Below are positions 40,797 to 54,022 of a DNA stretch of 64,000 nt, piece by piece. Below the pieces are notes generated by a model, which searched no databases, had not been told where the DNA came from, and worked only from the letters and a program-made list of their open reading frames with translations. The translations under genes and the position numbers were made by a program. How positions within the stretch are numbered: position 1 is the first letter of the stretch; each line of letters opens with the position of its first letter. Source of the stretch: an uncultured Dehalococcoidia bacterium (GTDB taxonomy: Bacteria > Chloroflexota > Dehalococcoidia > Lucifugimonadales > CAJWER01); assembly GCA_964342485.1 (NCBI GenBank), contig CAYFFO010000004.1:29213-93212 (forward strand), in the 5' to 3' direction.

Positions 40797-41165
40797 TCAC
40801 TCTTTATTTCCTAATTCATCAAGACGACTATCATCAATTCCAAAATGATGGGCAACCTCGTGAAGTACAGTTTCCCTAACTTCTTTGACAATATCATCAT
40901 CAGATGAACTGACTGCCTCGATAGATTCCTGAAACAGCGTGATTTTATCAGGCAAAATTCTGCTATACTCGTGTCTCTCTGTAAGGGGCACACCTTCATA
41001 TAAACCTAGAAGGTACTGTCCTTCTTTAATAAAATTTCCAGCTAGCTGTTCCTTTGTAGGAGAATCCTCAACCACAACATCCACATCGGACAGGTAATCT
41101 TGAAATTCATTCGGGATTAGACCTATCGCTTCTAAAACAAGGTGCTCAAAACTAGATTTTTCCAT
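40797..41165 (-). CDS. Small zincin-like metallopeptidase-family protein (DUF1025-type)
   Basis: 122 aa. The C-terminal HEVAHHFG (HExxH) motif and overall size match the small 'possible zinc metallopeptidase' family. Confidence 0.7.
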   Translation of the reverse strand: MEKSSFEHLVLEAIGLIPNEFQDYLSDVDVVVEDSPTKEQLAGNFIKEGQYLLGLYEGVPLTERHEYSRILPDKITLFQESIEAVSSSDDDIVKEVRETVLHEVAHHFGIDDSRLDELGNKE

Positions 41166-45848: not shown

Positions 45849-47078
45849 ATGGAAATCACTCGATCTATTTACATACACATACCTTTCTGCGAAACAAAAT
45901 GTCCATATTGTGACTTCAATACTTATGCTTCTATCGAACCCTTGATCACATCATATGTTGTTGCTTTAAAGAAAGAATTAACAATCTGGGGAACCAGTCT
46001 TGGTATTCCATCTATAGACACTGTATTTATCGGTGGAGGTACACCTTCATATTTACCTTCCGAAGAGATAAAGGGATTAGTTGCAACCCTTCATAAAAAT
46101 TTTGACATAACCAAAGATGCTGAAATAACTTTGGAATCTAATCCAGACGACCTAACTGAAAGTAAATTGACATCTCTGAAAGAAGCTGGAATAAATCGTC
46201 TCAGTATTGGCGTCCAAAGCCTAAATGACAAGTTATTAACCACTCTCGGTAGGCGCCACTCAGCAAAAGACGCGATATCTGTTTATCAAAGAGCACGATG
46301 CATGGGGTTTGGAAACATCAGTCTCGATTTAATGTACGGATTACCACACCAAAGCATAGAAATTTGGGATTCTACCTTGACACAAGTATTCGATCTTAAG
46401 CCAGACCATCTATCCATGTATTGTTTAACTTTGGAAGATGGGACTCCTATGCAAAAAAATGTAAGAAATGGCATTCTACCAAAACCAGATGTTGACCTTG
46501 CTGCTGACATGTATGTCATGGCTCAAGAAAAAGCTTCTCAGTTAGACTACCAACATTATGAAATATCTAATTGGTCCCTACTGGGTAAAGAAAGTCAGCA
46601 TAATTTAATTTATTGGCAAAACAAGCCTTTTCTAGGAGTTGGCCCAGGAGCACATTCTTATCTTCAAAATCATCGTTTTCATAATATAAAATCCCCGAAA
46701 CAGTACATTAAATACCTTAATCAAACACCCCAAGAACTTAATTGCACAACAATTTCAAGTAGCACTGATAACAGTTCAAATACACAAATACTATCGCAAC
46801 AATTTATCCCGACAGACCTTAAACCCATCATACAAGACGTAGAAATGATCAGCCTACCATTAGAAATGGCCGAAACAATCATGATGGGCCTACGATTATC
46901 TAGCGGTATTTACCATCAGGAATTTATTCTCAGGTTTGGTAACACAATTCAAGATACATATCCACAAATCATAAAAGACCTTGTTGAAGATAAATTGATA
47001 CAAGTAAACTCAGTTTCGGTTAAACTGACTGACAAAGGCAGAATATTAGGCAACGAGGTTTTCGCAAAATTCTTTTGA
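45849..47078 (+). CDS. hemW: Radical SAM heme chaperone HemW / oxygen-independent coproporphyrinogen-III oxidase-like protein
   Basis: 409 aa with YIHIPFCETKCPYCDF (CxxxCxxC), GGGTPS and a HemN C-terminal domain. Confidence 0.88.
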   Translation: MEITRSIYIHIPFCETKCPYCDFNTYASIEPLITSYVVALKKELTIWGTSLGIPSIDTVFIGGGTPSYLPSEEIKGLVATLHKNFDITKDAEITLESNPDDLTESKLTSLKEAGINRLSIGVQSLNDKLLTTLGRRHSAKDAISVYQRARCMGFGNISLDLMYGLPHQSIEIWDSTLTQVFDLKPDHLSMYCLTLEDGTPMQKNVRNGILPKPDVDLAADMYVMAQEKASQLDYQHYEISNWSLLGKESQHNLIYWQNKPFLGVGPGAHSYLQNHRFHNIKSPKQYIKYLNQTPQELNCTTISSSTDNSSNTQILSQQFIPTDLKPIIQDVEMISLPLEMAETIMMGLRLSSGIYHQEFILRFGNTIQDTYPQIIKDLVEDKLIQVNSVSVKLTDKGRILGNEVFAKFF

Positions 47079-47153: not shown

Positions 47154-49037
47154 ATGTTTGTTATTGGTACAGCAGGACATGTCGATCACGGTAAGTCCAC
47201 TTTAGTCAAAAAACTAACTGGTATAGATCCAGATCGTCTCACAGAAGAAAAAGCACGTGGAATGACAATTGATCTTGGATTTGCTTGGCTAAGCCTTCCT
47301 GGCGGTAACGAAGTAAGTATTATTGATGTCCCTGGACATGAACGCTTTGTAAATCATATGCTTGCAGGCGTCGGAATGATTGATTTAGCCCTACTAGTAA
47401 TAGCAGCTGACGAATCGGTAATGCCCCAAACTAAAGAGCATCTTTCAATTCTAAACCTTCTACAAATAAAAAGGTGTCTGGTAGCTGTGACCAAAAGTGA
47501 ACTAGTTGATGCAGATTGGTTAGATTTAGTTCAAATTGAAATCGATGAATTACTCAGCGCAACATGTCTTGAAAACTCACCTATTATTCCGATATCAAGC
47601 CAAACCGGCGACGGGATTCCACAGCTAATAAACAACATAATCAATGAATTAAAGAGAGCTAAACCACCTAATAATTTCAGCCGGCCTAGAATTGCAATAG
47701 ACCGATCGTTCACGATAGCAGGATTCGGCACTGTAGTCACCGGCACTTTAATTGAAGGTAAACTGCAAATTGGCCAAGAGGTCGAAATCCTACCTAAAGG
47801 CTATAAAAGTAGGATCAGAGGTTTGCAATCGCATAATCGAACGTTAAAACATGCGTATCCGGGCAACAGAATCGCAGTGAACTTAACAGGAGTTTCGCAC
47901 ACAGAAATAGAAAGAGGAGATGTTCTGACCATACCTGGATGGCTTCAGCCTACTTCTGCGATCGATGTCAAACTAAAAATGATAACAGAGGCACCGCGCC
48001 CAATTAAACACAATATGTTTGCAACTTTACATATTGGTACCAGAGAAACAATAACAAAAATTAGATTATTGGAAAAAGAAAAAGTATACCCTGGAGAAGA
48101 AACTTGGGCACAGTTCAAATTTGATCTGCCACAACCTTTAGTAAAGGATGATTATTTTGTAGTTCGTTCCAACAACACCACTTTAGCAGGGGGTAGAATT
48201 ATAGACCTTAACGCAAGACGACATAAGAAAAGTCATTTGCCAACTCTCGAACGACTATCAATCATGGAACATGGCTCTATTGAGGAACAATTACTGAAAA
48301 CAATAGAACTATCAGAACCGACCAATGTAAAAGATCTTGTAAACAAAACGAATTTGGAAAAGAAAGAGGTTCTTAATGAACTTAACCAAATGCGTCAGAA
48401 AAAACTGGGAGTATTTCTTGGTGATAAAGAAGTATCATCATCATCAATCATTTTCACCACCATAGGGTGGTCATCTTTAAAAATAAAAACGGAAACATTT
48501 CTGACCGACTTTCACAAAAAATTCCCATTACGTAAAGGAGCACCCAAAGAAGAACTTAGAAGTCGGCTAAATCTTAATCCAGAAATATTCGGATTAATTA
48601 TATTGAAATTGCATAGCGAATCAATCTTGGTAGAGCATCAAGGAATACTGTACGACCCAAAATACATACGTAAATTATCCCCTGTGCAGGCAAAGATTGC
48701 CAAAGAATATATCGACCTACTCTCTATTCATACTTATTCACCACCTACAGACCATGACATAGACCCAGAGCTATTGGGATTTTTAGTAGAGAAGGGAAAA
48801 GTAGTTAGAGTAACTGAACACATCATCTTTGAATCATCAGTTTACAGTGAAATGTTAGACAATATCACCAAATATCTCGATATTCATAATGAAATCTCTG
48901 TTGCAACGGTAAGAGACATGTTTGGAACCAGTCGCAAATATGCTTTAGCTATAATGGACTATCTTGACCAAATGAATATTACCCGTAGAATTGGTGATAT
49001 AAGAATACTTCAACCAAGTAAGTTGCAGAAGTTATGA
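47154..49037 (+). CDS. selB: Selenocysteine-specific translation elongation factor
   Basis: 627 aa. G domain [13 protein letters not shown] and [10 protein letters not shown]-Tu-like domains II-III, and about 280 aa of C-terminal winged-helix repeats typical of SelB. The G4 motif reads TKSE rather than the canonical TKxD. Confidence 0.88.
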
Positions 49038-49522
49038 TACAAAAAAACCAGAATCATATTCTTGAATTAATACTAGACCAGGGCCATGTGCCAGTTTCAT
49101 ATATCTCATCATTGCTTCGTACTTTACAGGCAGCAATACGTGAAGTGGCAGTCAGTTCAGAAAATACTCGATCTTATTTTGATAAACAACCACAACCAAC
49201 ACTGGTTTTAATTTCAATCGTTTCAGGTGAACAAATCAGTATGTGTCTAGGATTCGAAGACCCAATCAATAAAAAAATTCTTCCAACCTTATCAGAAAAT
49301 ACGTTCAGTACTTTCCTAGATAAGCTCAGTGAATTTGTAATGAGCTTACCCCAACCAAGTTTATGGGGAGGTGCTGCTCGAAAATCATCAACCAATCCCG
49401 AAACAGAAATGTCCAACCGGATGGACCAAGTATACGCTGAACTTAGAAGAGCTAAAAAGGTGAATCTGAAATTTAAGACCCGATCGATTGAAATTGAGGG
49501 CGATCGATTTGAAATTTTTTGA
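49034..49522 (+). CDS. Hypothetical protein (162 aa), translationally coupled to selB
   Basis: The ATG overlaps the selB TGA (ATGA at 49034-49037). No recognisable motif. Confidence 0.6.
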   Translation: MIQKNQNHILELILDQGHVPVSYISSLLRTLQAAIREVAVSSENTRSYFDKQPQPTLVLISIVSGEQISMCLGFEDPINKKILPTLSENTFSTFLDKLSEFVMSLPQPSLWGGAARKSSTNPETEMSNRMDQVYAELRRAKKVNLKFKTRSIEIEGDRFEIF

Positions 49523-49647
49523 CTTTTACATTTTAACCAGCAGCCCATTTGAGAAAACATCTCCTAATTTTATATATATCTCAAAATTCGTTTATTTTAA
49601 AACACCTATGTTCTTTACAAAGCGATCAATGGAGAAAATAATTAACA

Positions 49648-50850
49648 TTGCCACTTAATCTAAACGATACTGCGTTACAAATTGAATCTATGGTTTCTCT
49701 ACTAATAACACAAAAAGAGGGACACGAATTTAGATTGAATAATGCCGTACGAGCCTTAAAATCATTCTCACTTGATGATTATGAAAGCATCAAAAAGAAA
49801 AGAGGAACTTTTTCGGATATACCTTCTATTCTAGAACCTGCAACCACAGTCTACAACCCTCAATCCATTCCAAATGATTTCACAGTTGTAGCAGTCGATG
49901 GATCACATATCGACGTCGATCGCCATCTACCTGCAAGATGCTATTTAATAAATATCGGTTCAGCCACACTGACATATGGTAGCCAGTCCGATGCCTCTTT
50001 AGAAAACTCTGCTAGGCTCTATTCTCACCCTGATGAAATAGCCATAGTTGATCCTAACAGTAATAATTCACAAAATATTGAAGGAGCTGTCCTTGGAGCA
50101 AAAAGAACAGTTGCCGAAATGATTGAATTGGTAAATATAATCAAAGATTTGCCTGAAAACTTGCCAGTATTAGCGTTAGTTGATGGACCACTCGTGATGA
50201 TTGGTCTCACAGGTCAAGGATACGGTGATTTCGTCAGGGAATATCTTATTGAAAACGGATTTGTAAAAGCCATCACAGAACTAAGGGACTTATCTCAAAA
50301 AAGACCATTAGCCTTAGCAGGGTATGTTAGCCTACCACGATATTCCGAAGTAGTTAACACTCTAGTTATTGGTAATTGCGAATATCCAAAAGAAGAGAGA
50401 CGATGCTCCACTCGCCCGGGCACTCCTATAGACCAATGCTCAGTATGCGTTGGAGGTATACAAGATCGAGAATTGTTTGCTAAGTTGCTTTCTGTCAACC
50501 AAAGATCTGCACGCTTTTCATCATCATCAAGAATAGTAAAGAATCATTATTCCGATACTGAAATCGATTTTTTTTACTTAAATGTGGGATACGAAATAGC
50601 TCGAATAGAAATACCATCTTGGACATCAAGAAAACAATCGTCGCTTGAGTTAGTCCATTCTTTGATAGTCGATCAAGCTAAACGTGGTAAAGGATACCCA
50701 ATTTCGCTAATGGAAGCACATGAAATGGCTGCTATACAAGGATCGGATCGTCGCCATTTTACCGAAATGGTGGAACGAACTTTGAATTCACATAACATGC
50801 CCGTTTTTACTTCAGAGAAAGCAAGGTCAAAACGACTTCGCTGGCTGTGA
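49648..50850 (+). CDS. NurA-domain (RNase H-like fold) nuclease homolog with a 4-Cys insertion
   Basis: 400 aa (TTG start). Motifs occur in NurA order: VAVDGSH (Asp84), AEMIEL (Glu), ALVDGPL (Asp179) and GYPISLMEAHEMA (His358). There is an extra C244-x8-C253-x10-C264-x2-C267 cluster. Confidence 0.65.
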   Translation: MPLNLNDTALQIESMVSLLITQKEGHEFRLNNAVRALKSFSLDDYESIKKKRGTFSDIPSILEPATTVYNPQSIPNDFTVVAVDGSHIDVDRHLPARCYLINIGSATLTYGSQSDASLENSARLYSHPDEIAIVDPNSNNSQNIEGAVLGAKRTVAEMIELVNIIKDLPENLPVLALVDGPLVMIGLTGQGYGDFVREYLIENGFVKAITELRDLSQKRPLALAGYVSLPRYSEVVNTLVIGNCEYPKEERRCSTRPGTPIDQCSVCVGGIQDRELFAKLLSVNQRSARFSSSSRIVKNHYSDTEIDFFYLNVGYEIARIEIPSWTSRKQSSLELVHSLIVDQAKRGKGYPISLMEAHEMAAIQGSDRRHFTEMVERTLNSHNMPVFTSEKARSKRLRWL

Positions 50851-50937: not shown

Positions 50938-52800
50938 TTATTTCTCTACTTTAAGAATACTAAGAAAGGCTTCCTGTGGTATTTCTACACGACCCACACG
51001 CTTCATACGCTTTTTACCTTCTGCTTGCCTTTCAAGTAATTTTCTCTTACGTGTAATATCTCCACCATAACACTTTGCAAGTACATTTTTACGTAAAGCT
51101 CGAACAGTTTCCCTAGCGAAAATCTTGCTGCCAACTGCTGCCTGTATTGGTACCTCAAAAAGTTGACGAGGAATTAAATCCTTTAAACGGGTAGCAAGTA
51201 GTTTACCTCTAGAATGCACATTTTTTCTATGTACTATGATGGATAAGGCATCAACAGGTTCACCATTTACAAGAATATCCAACCGTACCAGATCTTCAGT
51301 CCGATGGTCCGCAACCGAATAATCTAAAGAAGCATATCCCTGTGTTCTTGACTTGAGTTGGTCATAAAAATCAACAAGCATCTCTGATAATGGCATTGCC
51401 ATTTCAAGCATCACTCTTGTTTGTGATATACCCAGTCTAGATTTACTAGCAGTCGCTGCATCATTCTCAGATGCAACCGTGCCATACTGTATGTATTCTG
51501 TTTTTATTAGTTCCCCTCTACGTGCAGTAACTAACTCAATCATATCTCCAATAAAATTCGCGGGAGTCAAAATAGTTAAATTAACCCAGGGTTCCTGTAT
51601 CTCATCTATTTTATCTATTGAAGGCAATTTAGAAGGATTATCAATTTCACGAAGATCTCCATCTGTAGTTATTACTTGATATGCTACGCTTGGAGAGGTT
51701 GCAAGAAGATTAATTTCATATTCTCTCTCTAGTCTTTCTTGTACCACCTCCATATGAAGTAAGCCAAGAAACCCACACCTGAATCCTGAACCAAGTGCTA
51801 AAGAATTTTCTGGTTCGAAGGAAAGGGCTGCGTCATTTATACCAAGCTTTTCAAGTGCGTCACGAAGATCCAAGTAGTCCTCACCATCTGCGGGATATAG
51901 CCCTGCAAACACCATTGGCTTAAGCGGCTTATATGTATTAAGCGGTGATTCAGCACCGTTCTCGGATAATGTGATTGTATCTCCAACAGGAGCGTCCCCA
52001 ACAGATTTAAGACCAGTTGCAACATAACCAACTTCCCCTGCTTTCAAAAAATCCAATGCAGTGGGTTTTGGTTTAAAAGCACCTATTTCTAAAACATCAC
52101 TACTAGCTCGATTAGACATTACCATTATTCTAGAACTTGCTGTCAATGTCCCGTCAACTATACGAACATAAGCTATTACACCCTTGTATTGATCATACTT
52201 GGAATCAAACACTAAAGCTCTTAAAGAATCTCCAGTATTACCTTTTGGTCCAGGTATGCGATTGACAATTGCTTCTAGTACTGAATCAACACCTTTCCCA
52301 TCTTTTGCAGATACCATCATGATTTCATCATGCTTGAACCCAAAAGCTTGTTGTACTTCCTCAGAAACCCTTTCAGGCTCAGCAATATCTAAGTCAATCT
52401 TGTTTATAACAGGGATTACCTCAAGATCATGCTCTAACGCAAGGTAGACGTTAGCTAGAGTTTGGGCCTGTATGCCTTGGGTAGCATCTACCACTAATAG
52501 GGCTCCTTCACATGCTGCTAAACTTCTAGAAACCTCGTAAGAAAAATCAACATGCCCTGGTGTATCAATCAAATTTAGCTGGTAGTCCATACCAGAATTT
52601 GTCTTGTATTCTAACCGGACTGCCTGAGCCTTAATCGTTATCCCACGTTCGCGCTCAAGTTCCATTGAATCAAGATGTTGGTCTACCATCTGTCGTGCTT
52701 CAACAGTATTAGTTTTTTCAAGCAGCCGATCAGCTAAGGTAGACTTGCCATGATCTATATGCGCTATTATGCAAAAATTTCGTATGAAGTCCGAATCCAT
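50938..52800 (-). CDS. lepA: Translation elongation factor 4
   Basis: 620 aa with [24 protein letters not shown] and NKIDL, plus the LepA-specific C-terminal domain ending in ...[15 protein letters not shown]. Confidence 0.97.
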
Positions 52801-52895
52801 ACAATTATGTTAGCACGTACAGTAAGGTACAGGCATGGGAAAATGTGGTTCGATTTTAATATCAACTTTGCATAGAAAGCTATGTTGATCATTAT

Positions 52896-52980
52896 TGGTG
52901 GGGAAGCCGGGACTCGAACCCGGACGCCTCTCGGCACATGATCCTAAATCATGCTCGTCTACCAATTCCGACACTCCCCC
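52896..52980 (-). tRNA. tRNA-Leu (anticodon TAG), long variable arm, CCA encoded
   Basis: The reverse complement folds as follows: acceptor GGGGGAG/CTTCCCC, D loop GAATTGGTAGA, anticodon stem CATGA/TCATG with loop TTTAGGA, a 13-nt variable arm, and T arm CCGGG-TTCGAGT-CCCGG. Confidence 0.9.
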
Positions 52981-53044
52981 CCAAAACTTACCCATTATAT
53001 ATCTGTATCTGAAAAAACAACACGATATCTTACAAGAGAAAAGC

Positions 53045-54022
53045 TTACAATACTGATATCCCTTGAGAGACTGAGTCGAGTCTCTCGACTTCCTCAATAC
53101 TTAGCTCCCAGCCCAATGCTCCAAGGTTATCATCAATCTGTGCTATAGTGTCGCTCCCAGAAATTGCAACGGTTATTTCATCATGAGAAAGAACCCAGTT
53201 TACAGATACCTGTACCATGGTTTTATCTCTATTTCTAGATATCTCATCTACAGTACGAAGCACGTTTATAGTTTCAGGGGTCATATAACTTTTAAACATA
53301 TCGATCCTATTATCACCACCCCAATAAGATTCAGCAGGAGCATTCCCATCTAACCCGTAATTTCCACTTAAAAGTCCAACTCCTAATGGACTATACGCCA
53401 TGGCCCCCAATCCTTGATCACGAATTACTTCAAATAAATCCTGCTCAGGATCACGCTTCAATAAGCTGTATTGATTTTGGAGAGTTATAAGAGGGCTGGC
53501 ACCAAGCTGGTCTTGAACCCATAACATTTTACATACCTGCCATGCTTTAAAATTGCATGCCCCTACATATCTAACTTTGCCGCTATAAACAAGGTCGTCC
53601 AATGCCCTTGCAGTTTCTTCGATAGGGCTATCGTCATCCCAACCATGTAATAAATAAACATCAATCCGATCAGTCTTCATCCTACACAAAGAGTTCTCTA
53701 CCTGTTTGAGTATATGGTAACGAGAGCTACCCTGATCATTCGGGCCATCACCCATCGGGCTATGTACTTTCGATGTCACCACCAGTTCGTCTCTTTTTGA
53801 CTTAAGTACATTAGACAAGATCTTCTCGGATGTACCCCTTTCTCTTCTATTGTCACCTAAACCATAAACATTAGCGCAGTCAATCAGATTAATACCGGAA
53901 TCAATTGCGTGTTCTATCAAATACTGTGCTTCCTGGGCAGAATTTTGCCCTCTGAGACCAAGACCAAGCGCAATAGGAGAAACCTTCATACCGGAACTGC
54001 CAAAATTAATATATTCCAACAT
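53045..54022 (-). CDS. Aldo/keto reductase family oxidoreductase
   Basis: 325 aa. It begins with a GSSGMKVSPIALG start and shows the pattern D..NVYG...SE, the catalytic K in TSK, LHGWD and VGACNF, as in the AKR11/AKR13-like family. Confidence 0.88.
   Translation of the reverse strand: MLEYINFGSSGMKVSPIALGLGLRGQNSAQEAQYLIEHAIDSGINLIDCANVYGLGDNRRERGTSEKILSNVLKSKRDELVVTSKVHSPMGDGPNDQGSSRYHILKQVENSLCRMKTDRIDVYLLHGWDDDSPIEETARALDDLVYSGKVRYVGACNFKAWQVCKMLWVQDQLGASPLITLQNQYSLLKRDPEQDLFEVIRDQGLGAMAYSPLGVGLLSGNYGLDGNAPAESYWGGDNRIDMFKSYMTPETINVLRTVDEISRNRDKTMVQVSVNWVLSHDEITVAISGSDTIAQIDDNLGALGWELSIEEVERLDSVSQGISVL

Follow-up and report, generated by a model that had tools for sequence, protein, structure and literature searches.

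To which neighbour does an orphan gene belong when it begins inside the stop codon of selB and is followed by a nurA gene with no herA beside it? The question is raised by a 64 kb stretch of Dehalococcoidia DNA (hereafter the window, in whose coordinates all positions are given), where hemW, selB, an open reading frame (ORF) encoding 162 residues (ORF162) and nurA form a compact co-directional string with a convergent lepA behind it. The original prediction had proposed either a standalone metal- or Fe-S-binding NurA variant with a new small partner, or an accessory factor of SelB. The first proposal found no support, for orthologues of this NurA are linked to herA and ORF162 does not travel with NurA. 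The second agrees with the gene order, and the accessory role itself is what that order would suggest. Our best reading is that the SelB operon of this lineage includes ORF162 as a dispensable, lineage-specific protein, possibly an accessory of SelB. The full explanation that we favour places ORF162 in the selB unit, takes NurA as an ordinary orthologue whose HerA is encoded elsewhere and its cysteines as a structural metal site; we would give it a probability of roughly 0.55.

ORF162 stays with selB

The features at the heart of the question are the following.
47154..49037, + strand: selB, 627 residues, selenocysteine-specific elongation factor (TIGR00475, 352 bits against a cut-off of 242)
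49034..49037, + strand: ATGA, in which the orf162 start lies over the selB stop (direct sequence reading)
49034..49522, + strand: ORF162, orphan protein of 162 residues (homologues, AlphaFold2 model, position behind selB)

The overlap of the two genes was confirmed as first noticed. The upstream gene is a SelB by its equivalog score, its EF-Tu-like GTPase and its C-terminal winged-helix domains, which bind the selenocysteine insertion sequence (SECIS); Pfam recognizes GTP_EFTU, D2, Beta-barrel_SelB, SelB-wing_2 and SelB-wing_3. Gene order was mapped in 80 loci from Dehalococcoidia/SAR202 genomes that were fetched with an alignment of homologues, and separately in sets of loci anchored on ORF162 and free of a bias towards NurA. 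Wherever the upstream side of ORF162 could be tested, in about 85 loci in total, the gene immediately before it is selB. This is so in 46/46 testable NurA-anchored genome loci, with a median gap of 17 nucleotides (nt), in all six loci of distant homologues (26-35% identity) and in 33/33 loci with upstream sequence from a metagenome scan anchored on ORF162, a set that includes a contig 100% identical to the window (L092). Contig CEUS01090456.1 likewise matches the window with 100% identity. The pairing with selB thus recurs wherever it can be tested, while the overlap itself is less constant: 1- or 4-nt overlaps occur in distant homologues (L083-L087) and most SAR202 loci have gaps of 3-30 nt. 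Apparent selB-ORF162 fusions in L027, L031 and L034 were rejected, since the DNA shows a TAG stop and a 12-nt gap.

Downstream of ORF162 the order is far less stable. Among the ORF162-anchored loci NurA follows in about 18. About 13 others, with 0.8 kb or more of sequence beyond ORF162, have no NurA there (e.g. L084, L085, L087, L101, L113, L122, L123 and L128), its place being taken by a convergent AP (apurinic/apyrimidinic)-endonuclease/SecDF block, a sigma-70 gene or others; ORF162 is thus paired with NurA in no more than about half of the loci retrieved with it. Eight NurA-anchored loci hold the selB-orf162 pair 3-6 kb away from nurA, and in about 20 loci ORF162 is cleanly missing and selB adjoins nurA directly. 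In the NurA-anchored loci, a nurA gene without upstream selB never carries ORF162. On the other side, the order hemW > selB was found again in many relatives, hemW often being upstream of selB. Both the hemW-selB and the orf162-nurA neighbourhoods have been broken many times, whereas the selB-orf162 junction has never been broken over the same evolutionary span. An intact junction between rearranged flanks argues that function or expression links ORF162 to SelB, and this is the main argument of our analysis. The possibility that ORF162 homologues never co-occur with selB or NurA can be set aside, as they always come with selB. In a neighbour-joining tree of SelB, the deepest branches have ORF162 and five separate patches lack it; it therefore appears to be ancestral and to have been lost at least five times.

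An orphan family with a predicted fold

ORF162 is a real gene that belongs to a folded orphan family. A word-indexed search gave 47 homologues, and a profile search of 1.84 billion representatives extended the family to about 100 clusters at 50% identity, essentially all of 150-200 residues. The AlphaFold2 model has a mean predicted local distance difference test score (pLDDT) of 86.2 and a predicted template modelling score (pTM) of 0.82. It predicts an alpha+beta, ferredoxin-like fold of the order beta-alpha-alpha-beta-beta-alpha ... alpha-beta-beta-beta with one disordered loop, which holds the conserved LPQPxLWG; a second conserved block, VSxxSSLLRxLQAAxRE, makes up one polar face of helix 1. 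The impression that this ORF has no assignable motif was borne out by Pfam, NCBIfam, PADLOC and the PDB sequences, none of which gave a match. A Foldseek comparison with the PDB returned only a loose ferredoxin-like likeness (E > 0.01), and neither by profile nor by sequence or fold does ORF162 fall into any described family. We found no description of the protein, or of its selB-linked arrangement, in the literature searched. There is no genuine fusion among the roughly 100 clusters; one apparent ORF162-NurA fusion (P0174, 326 residues) proved to be a frameshift artefact with out-of-frame junk between its two parts.

A possible role in selenocysteine decoding

The overlap of the ORF162 ATG with the selB stop means that ribosomes finishing SelB can reinitiate on ORF162. 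In this configuration ORF162 would be part of the selB transcription and translation unit; ribosomes ending SelB would pass on to its ATG, tying its output to SelB synthesis. It is a companion of selB from ancient times. The homologues have no conserved Cys or His, their isoelectric points range from 5.0 to 10.9 (median 6.5) and their charge is inconsistent, which makes it unlikely that ORF162 carries selenium, serves as a redox carrier or binds nucleic acids in general; probably it is not an enzyme either. Its likeliest role would be that of a protein-protein accessory, for instance one that modulates or stabilises SelB during delivery of selenocysteyl-tRNA (Sec-tRNA(Sec)). Bacterial selenocysteine (Sec) insertion is generally held to be complete with SelA, SelB, SelC and SelD, and a protein that has kept its place behind selB throughout an entire and abundant marine lineage would offer a definite candidate for a further factor, and one open to experiment. 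Only tentatively would we go one step further and consider ORF162 as an unrecognised fifth component of Sec decoding in Chloroflexota, bound to SelB, coupled to it through stop and start codon, tuning either Sec-tRNA(Sec) delivery or SECIS engagement, and lost where it is not needed.

Several observations weigh against this placement of ORF162. Of the 85 full-length selB genes sampled, 23 (about one in four) lack an adjoining ORF162, which is therefore not required for Sec decoding. No column of the SelB alignment separates lineages with ORF162 from those without, and the reverse control gave none either. Neighbouring orf162 and nurA genes lie close together (median gap 14 nt), and selB, orf162, nurA, herA and c5, a small gene preceding herA in relatives (see below), may have formed a single ancestral operon. 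Finally, it is from adjacency that the case for ORF162 and SelB is drawn.

The same observations could be accommodated if ORF162 had nothing to do with SelB function and were kept behind selB for the sake of its expression, by operon hitch-hiking or by inertia of synteny in streamlined genomes. SAR202 operons do mix unrelated housekeeping genes (hemW, selB and nurA-herA), the losses of ORF162 occurred with selB being kept, no SelB residues correlate with its presence and the protein has no recognisable functional motif. We nevertheless regard this as rather unlikely, because an unrelated gene would at least occasionally part from selB, whereas the adjacency is unbroken in the testable loci, down to 26% identity, with the flanks meanwhile rearranged.

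NurA and its HerA

If ORF162 is a protein of the SelB operon, what of the nuclease gene behind it? The features concerned are these.
49523..49647, no strand: AT-rich spacer of 125 nt between orf162 and nurA (GGAG about 13 nt before the TTG start)
49648..50850, + strand: nurA, 400 residues, TTG start, RNase H-fold nuclease of a Dehalococcoidia/SAR202 clade (PF09376)
49939..49941, + strand: codon of Cys98 (Cys in 82/83 clade members; outside the insertion)
50377..50448, + strand: Cys-bearing loop C244-x8-C253-x10-C264-x2-C267 (clade alignment)
50809..50847, + strand: basic C-terminal tail TSEKARSKRLRWL, candidate HerA-docking motif (nearly invariant in the NurA alignment)
50938..52800, − strand: lepA (EF4), convergent with nurA (TIGR01393, 924.5 bits)

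NurA is an RNase H-fold 5′-3′ nuclease that docks on the hexameric translocase HerA and serves in DNA-end resection. The 125-nt gap and the 400-residue reading frame were found as predicted, and the assignment to NurA is sound: PF09376 matches with 74.6 bits against a cut-off of 21 (E 1e-20), residues 79-363 covering positions 2-254 of the 254 in the model. All four motifs of the D/E/D/H order are present (VAVDGSH, AEMIEL, ALVDGPL and GYPISLMEAHEMA), and D84, E157, D179, H337, E356 and H358 are invariant in 83/83 clade members; by the motif order these would correspond to the archaeal catalytic residues. The AlphaFold2 model (pLDDT 83.7, pTM 0.85) finds its best Foldseek match in the PDB with NurA of Deinococcus radiodurans (7f6d_G), followed by Pyrococcus furiosus NurA (3taz/3tal), with E values of 8e-7 to 2e-6; after the solved NurAs come Argonaute PIWI, EndoV and RNase H. 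No solved NurA was matched at the level of sequence or profile, and the clade is therefore divergent. A genome scan with the single NurA protein gave no match, and one based on an alignment succeeded. The protein does not belong to the archaeal equivalog NF041033 (NurA_Sulf), for which it scores 13.1 bits where 400 are required. Support for the TTG start comes from the 14 residues before M15, which align with the conserved N-terminus of homologues. More than 767 homologues exist, some of them named 'DNA double-strand break repair nuclease NurA' and assigned to Chloroflexi/SAR202 (NCBI). Four 400-residue homologues (P0124, P0129, P0138 and P0158) bear the name 'GNAT superfamily N-acetyltransferase' from JGI (the Joint Genome Institute), probably by mis-annotation; a separate GNAT gene (c23, e.g. 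L017:8217-8714) sometimes lies between nurA and c5. The protein is a new member of a known family, orthologous to the NurA that bacteria of this lineage normally have.

The recurrent order in relatives is hemW > selB > [orf162] > nurA > c5 > c2, in which c2 is HerA (DUF87 with 99.6 bits and a HAS-barrel, besides generic HerA matches in NCBIfam and PADLOC) and c5 a HAS-barrel-like gene of about 198 codons. Over 81 NurA loci the position of herA is as follows.
herA within 1.5 kb downstream: 38/81 loci
herA 1.5-7 kb downstream: 11/81 loci
no herA in a flank of at least 3 kb: 28/81 loci
flank too short: 4/81 loci

In the window itself the absence of an adjacent HerA and the opposite strand of lepA were both verified, tblastn with 44 HerA and 26 c5 queries returning nothing over the 64 kb. 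'HerA-less' is therefore an apt description of this locus, but not of the protein family, in which herA lies downstream of nurA in 49/81 loci together with the c5 gene. lepA fills the place that c5 and herA hold in relatives, which a rearrangement would explain. HerA is then presumably encoded elsewhere in the genome, and NurA most likely still works with it. Such a separation can be seen in the L001 genome, where nurA is followed by unrelated genes and c5-herA lies at about 2.35 Mb and selB-orf162-nurA at about 2.78 Mb of the same contig of 3,002,008 bp, some 430 kb apart. The HerA of this genome is 82% identical to that of L003, and HerA is strongly conserved in the clade (71-82% identity). 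Two HerA proteins (P0269 and P0271) were considered for the window organism and rejected; their contigs have 62-65% GC against 38% in the window, and therefore come from other organisms. The window nurA is the orthologue of the herA-linked copy and not a decayed paralogue.

The C-terminal tail gives a further hint. TSEKxxSKRLRWL is basic and nearly invariant, also in orthologues that adjoin c5-herA. D. radiodurans NurA (DrNurA) uses a basic motif-4 at its C-terminus (R336/R337/R339) to bind HerA on the acidic face of the HAS-barrel (PMC9960219), and by analogy the tail may be a docking site for HerA.

The insertion with four cysteines had been correctly placed, residues 244, 253, 264 and 267 lying at nt 50377-50448. 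Conservation within the clade, however, redraws the set.
C244, C253 and C264: Cys in 83/83 clade members
C98: Cys in 82/83 clade members
C267: Cys in 32/83; Ala, Val, Ser or a gap elsewhere

The first three cysteines of the insertion thus hold as predicted while the fourth conserved one is not C267 but C98, so that the conserved set consists of one upstream cysteine and three in the loop. C98, C244, C253 and C264 probably form a clade-wide structural metal site, plausibly for Zn or Fe-S.

Two points count against this part of the explanation. Residues 246-263 of the loop are modelled at a pLDDT below 50, so that the geometry of a metal site is not readable from the model, and with 28/81 relatives lacking herA within at least 3 kb NurA may have an independent activity. 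These relatives, together with the absence of herA from the 64 kb, the four conserved cysteines and the HerA-independent nicking activity of DrNurA (PMC9960219), could point to a standalone metal- or Fe-S-containing nuclease that acts without HerA. We consider this improbable. The cysteines and the basic tail are shared by orthologues directly adjoining c5-herA, and are therefore not adaptations to the loss of HerA; the single unlinked relative that was checked keeps c5-herA elsewhere on its chromosome, and HerA shows the high identity across the clade given above. The NurA half of the locus is the less important one: a seemingly orphan nuclease is most likely the usual HerA partner after a rearrangement. 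It still brings to light two features of the SAR202 NurA-HerA system for which we found no description in the literature, the one-plus-three cysteines and the HAS-barrel-like protein encoded before herA.

A role of ORF162 beside the NurA(-HerA) nuclease, whether as its regulator or as a small partner not known before, is very improbable: adjacent orf162 and nurA are packed or overlapping (by 4 nt in L002 and L083) and the five-gene string selB-orf162-nurA-c5-herA is old (L105, L106, L112), but ORF162 stays with selB when nurA is distant or absent (at least 20 loci in at least four downstream contexts), is never upstream of a selB-less nurA (L035, L047, L058, L072, L077, L078, L080, L081), is missing from about 20 loci with intact nurA-c5-herA, and does not accompany relocated c5-herA pairs (L090, L091).

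Surroundings of c5 and herA in relatives

The c5 protein gives a weak HAS-barrel match (E 0.004) and no match in NCBIfam or PADLOC. Its gene is always directly upstream of herA in the clade, also when the two are unlinked from nurA (L003:8321-8914, L004:12741-13337, L090:4370-4963, L091:7382-7984), and c5 has the appearance of a third partner in the NurA-HerA system of SAR202, one without description in the literature searched. Two loci from close relatives carry an island between nurA and c5-herA (L002:10188-15070, L009:8688-13570) that encodes a DNA methylase, HATPase_c_3 and Helicase_C/ERCC3-like proteins; it looks like a restriction or defence cassette, and its insertion shows how the adjacency of nurA and herA gets broken. 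In the L001 genome a 320-residue AIRS/AIRS_C protein, which could be SelD-, ThiL- or HypE-like, is encoded two genes upstream of the relocated c5-herA (L090:2842-3804). Another relocated c5-herA pair adjoins an RVT_1 reverse transcriptase and a PIN/MazE toxin-antitoxin pair (L091:3513-6676), a sign that mobile elements may be active near herA in some genomes of SAR202.

The wider locus

The string starts with a further gene upstream of selB.
45849..47078, + strand: hemW, radical-SAM haem chaperone (TIGR00539 HemW, 307.7 bits against a cut-off of 205; Pfam Radical_SAM and HemN_C)

The spacer between orf162 and nurA is usually 1-30 nt in relatives, against 125 nt in the window. No terminator-like site was found in it and promoter-like matches were at chance level. 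Compared with shuffled sequence, neither the selB/ORF162 junction (z = -0.40) nor the spacer (z = 0.17) forms a stable RNA structure. Rfam recognized only tRNAs over the window, and the window has no tRNA-Sec. PADLOC had no match for NurA, ORF162 or c5, and for HerA only generic matches to the HerA superfamily; with these blanks and with housekeeping genes as neighbours, a reading of the locus as anti-phage defence was rejected.

A small Zincin_1 gene (PF06262) is a second persistent neighbour of hemW/selB-orf162, in close and in very distant loci; it lies at 40797-41165 on the − strand of the window, and at L001:4364-4729, L084:4190-4558 and L087:1784-2182. A 95-residue ORF at 52810-53097 (− strand) overlaps tRNA-Leu(tag) at 52896-52980 (− strand) and is almost certainly spurious. 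The GC content of the window is 38%, against 58-66% in most related Dehalococcoidia loci and 46.5% in the closest genome relative (L003); the window stems from an unusually AT-rich, probably streamlined marine lineage of SAR202/Dehalococcoidia. Apart from it, this lineage is represented in public data by short contigs only (P0001, P0048, L092).

Comparison with known systems

The NurA of the window is most readily compared with the NurA-HerA system of D. radiodurans (DR0836/DR0837; PDB 7f6d; PMC9960219), with which it shares the NurA domain, the RNase H-like fold, the invariant acidic and His positions and a basic C-terminus, and whose linkage recurs in orthologues adjoining a HerA ATPase (DUF87 and HAS-barrel). 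The structural paper on DrNurA makes no mention of zinc or cysteine (PMC9960219), whereas the window clade has the Cys-bearing loop and C98. Identity to DrNurA is only about 17%, the window NurA has an additional pair of long N-terminal helices (residues 5-52), c5 stands between nurA and herA in its clade, and in the window herA is not adjacent.

In archaea NurA is encoded in a herA-mre11-rad50-nurA operon. Archaeal NurA (P. furiosus 3tal/3taz; S. solfataricus 2ygk) belongs to the same fold family and has the same D/E/D/H motif order; in contrast, no mre11 or rad50 lies near the window nurA, the host is bacterial and, as said, the NurA_Sulf score falls far short of its cut-off (13 against 400 bits).

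One-plus-three cysteines also form the [4Fe-4S] 'iron-staple' motifs of the DNA-end nucleases AddB, Cas4 and Dna2/Exo5. The arrangement of C98 far upstream of the cluster C244, C253 and C264 is reminiscent of these, a likeness to be taken as a lead only since the fold here is RNase H-like rather than PD-(D/E)XK, the spacing differs and the loop is poorly modelled.

For ORF162 the proper comparison is with the bacterial selA-selB-selC-selD set. The likeness lies in selB, which is full-length in the window and has the winged-helix domains for SECIS binding. To our knowledge, the bacterial Sec machinery as described includes no fifth, SelB-coupled protein; here, in contrast, a protein of 160-170 residues is coupled to selB or packed closely behind it across the lineage.

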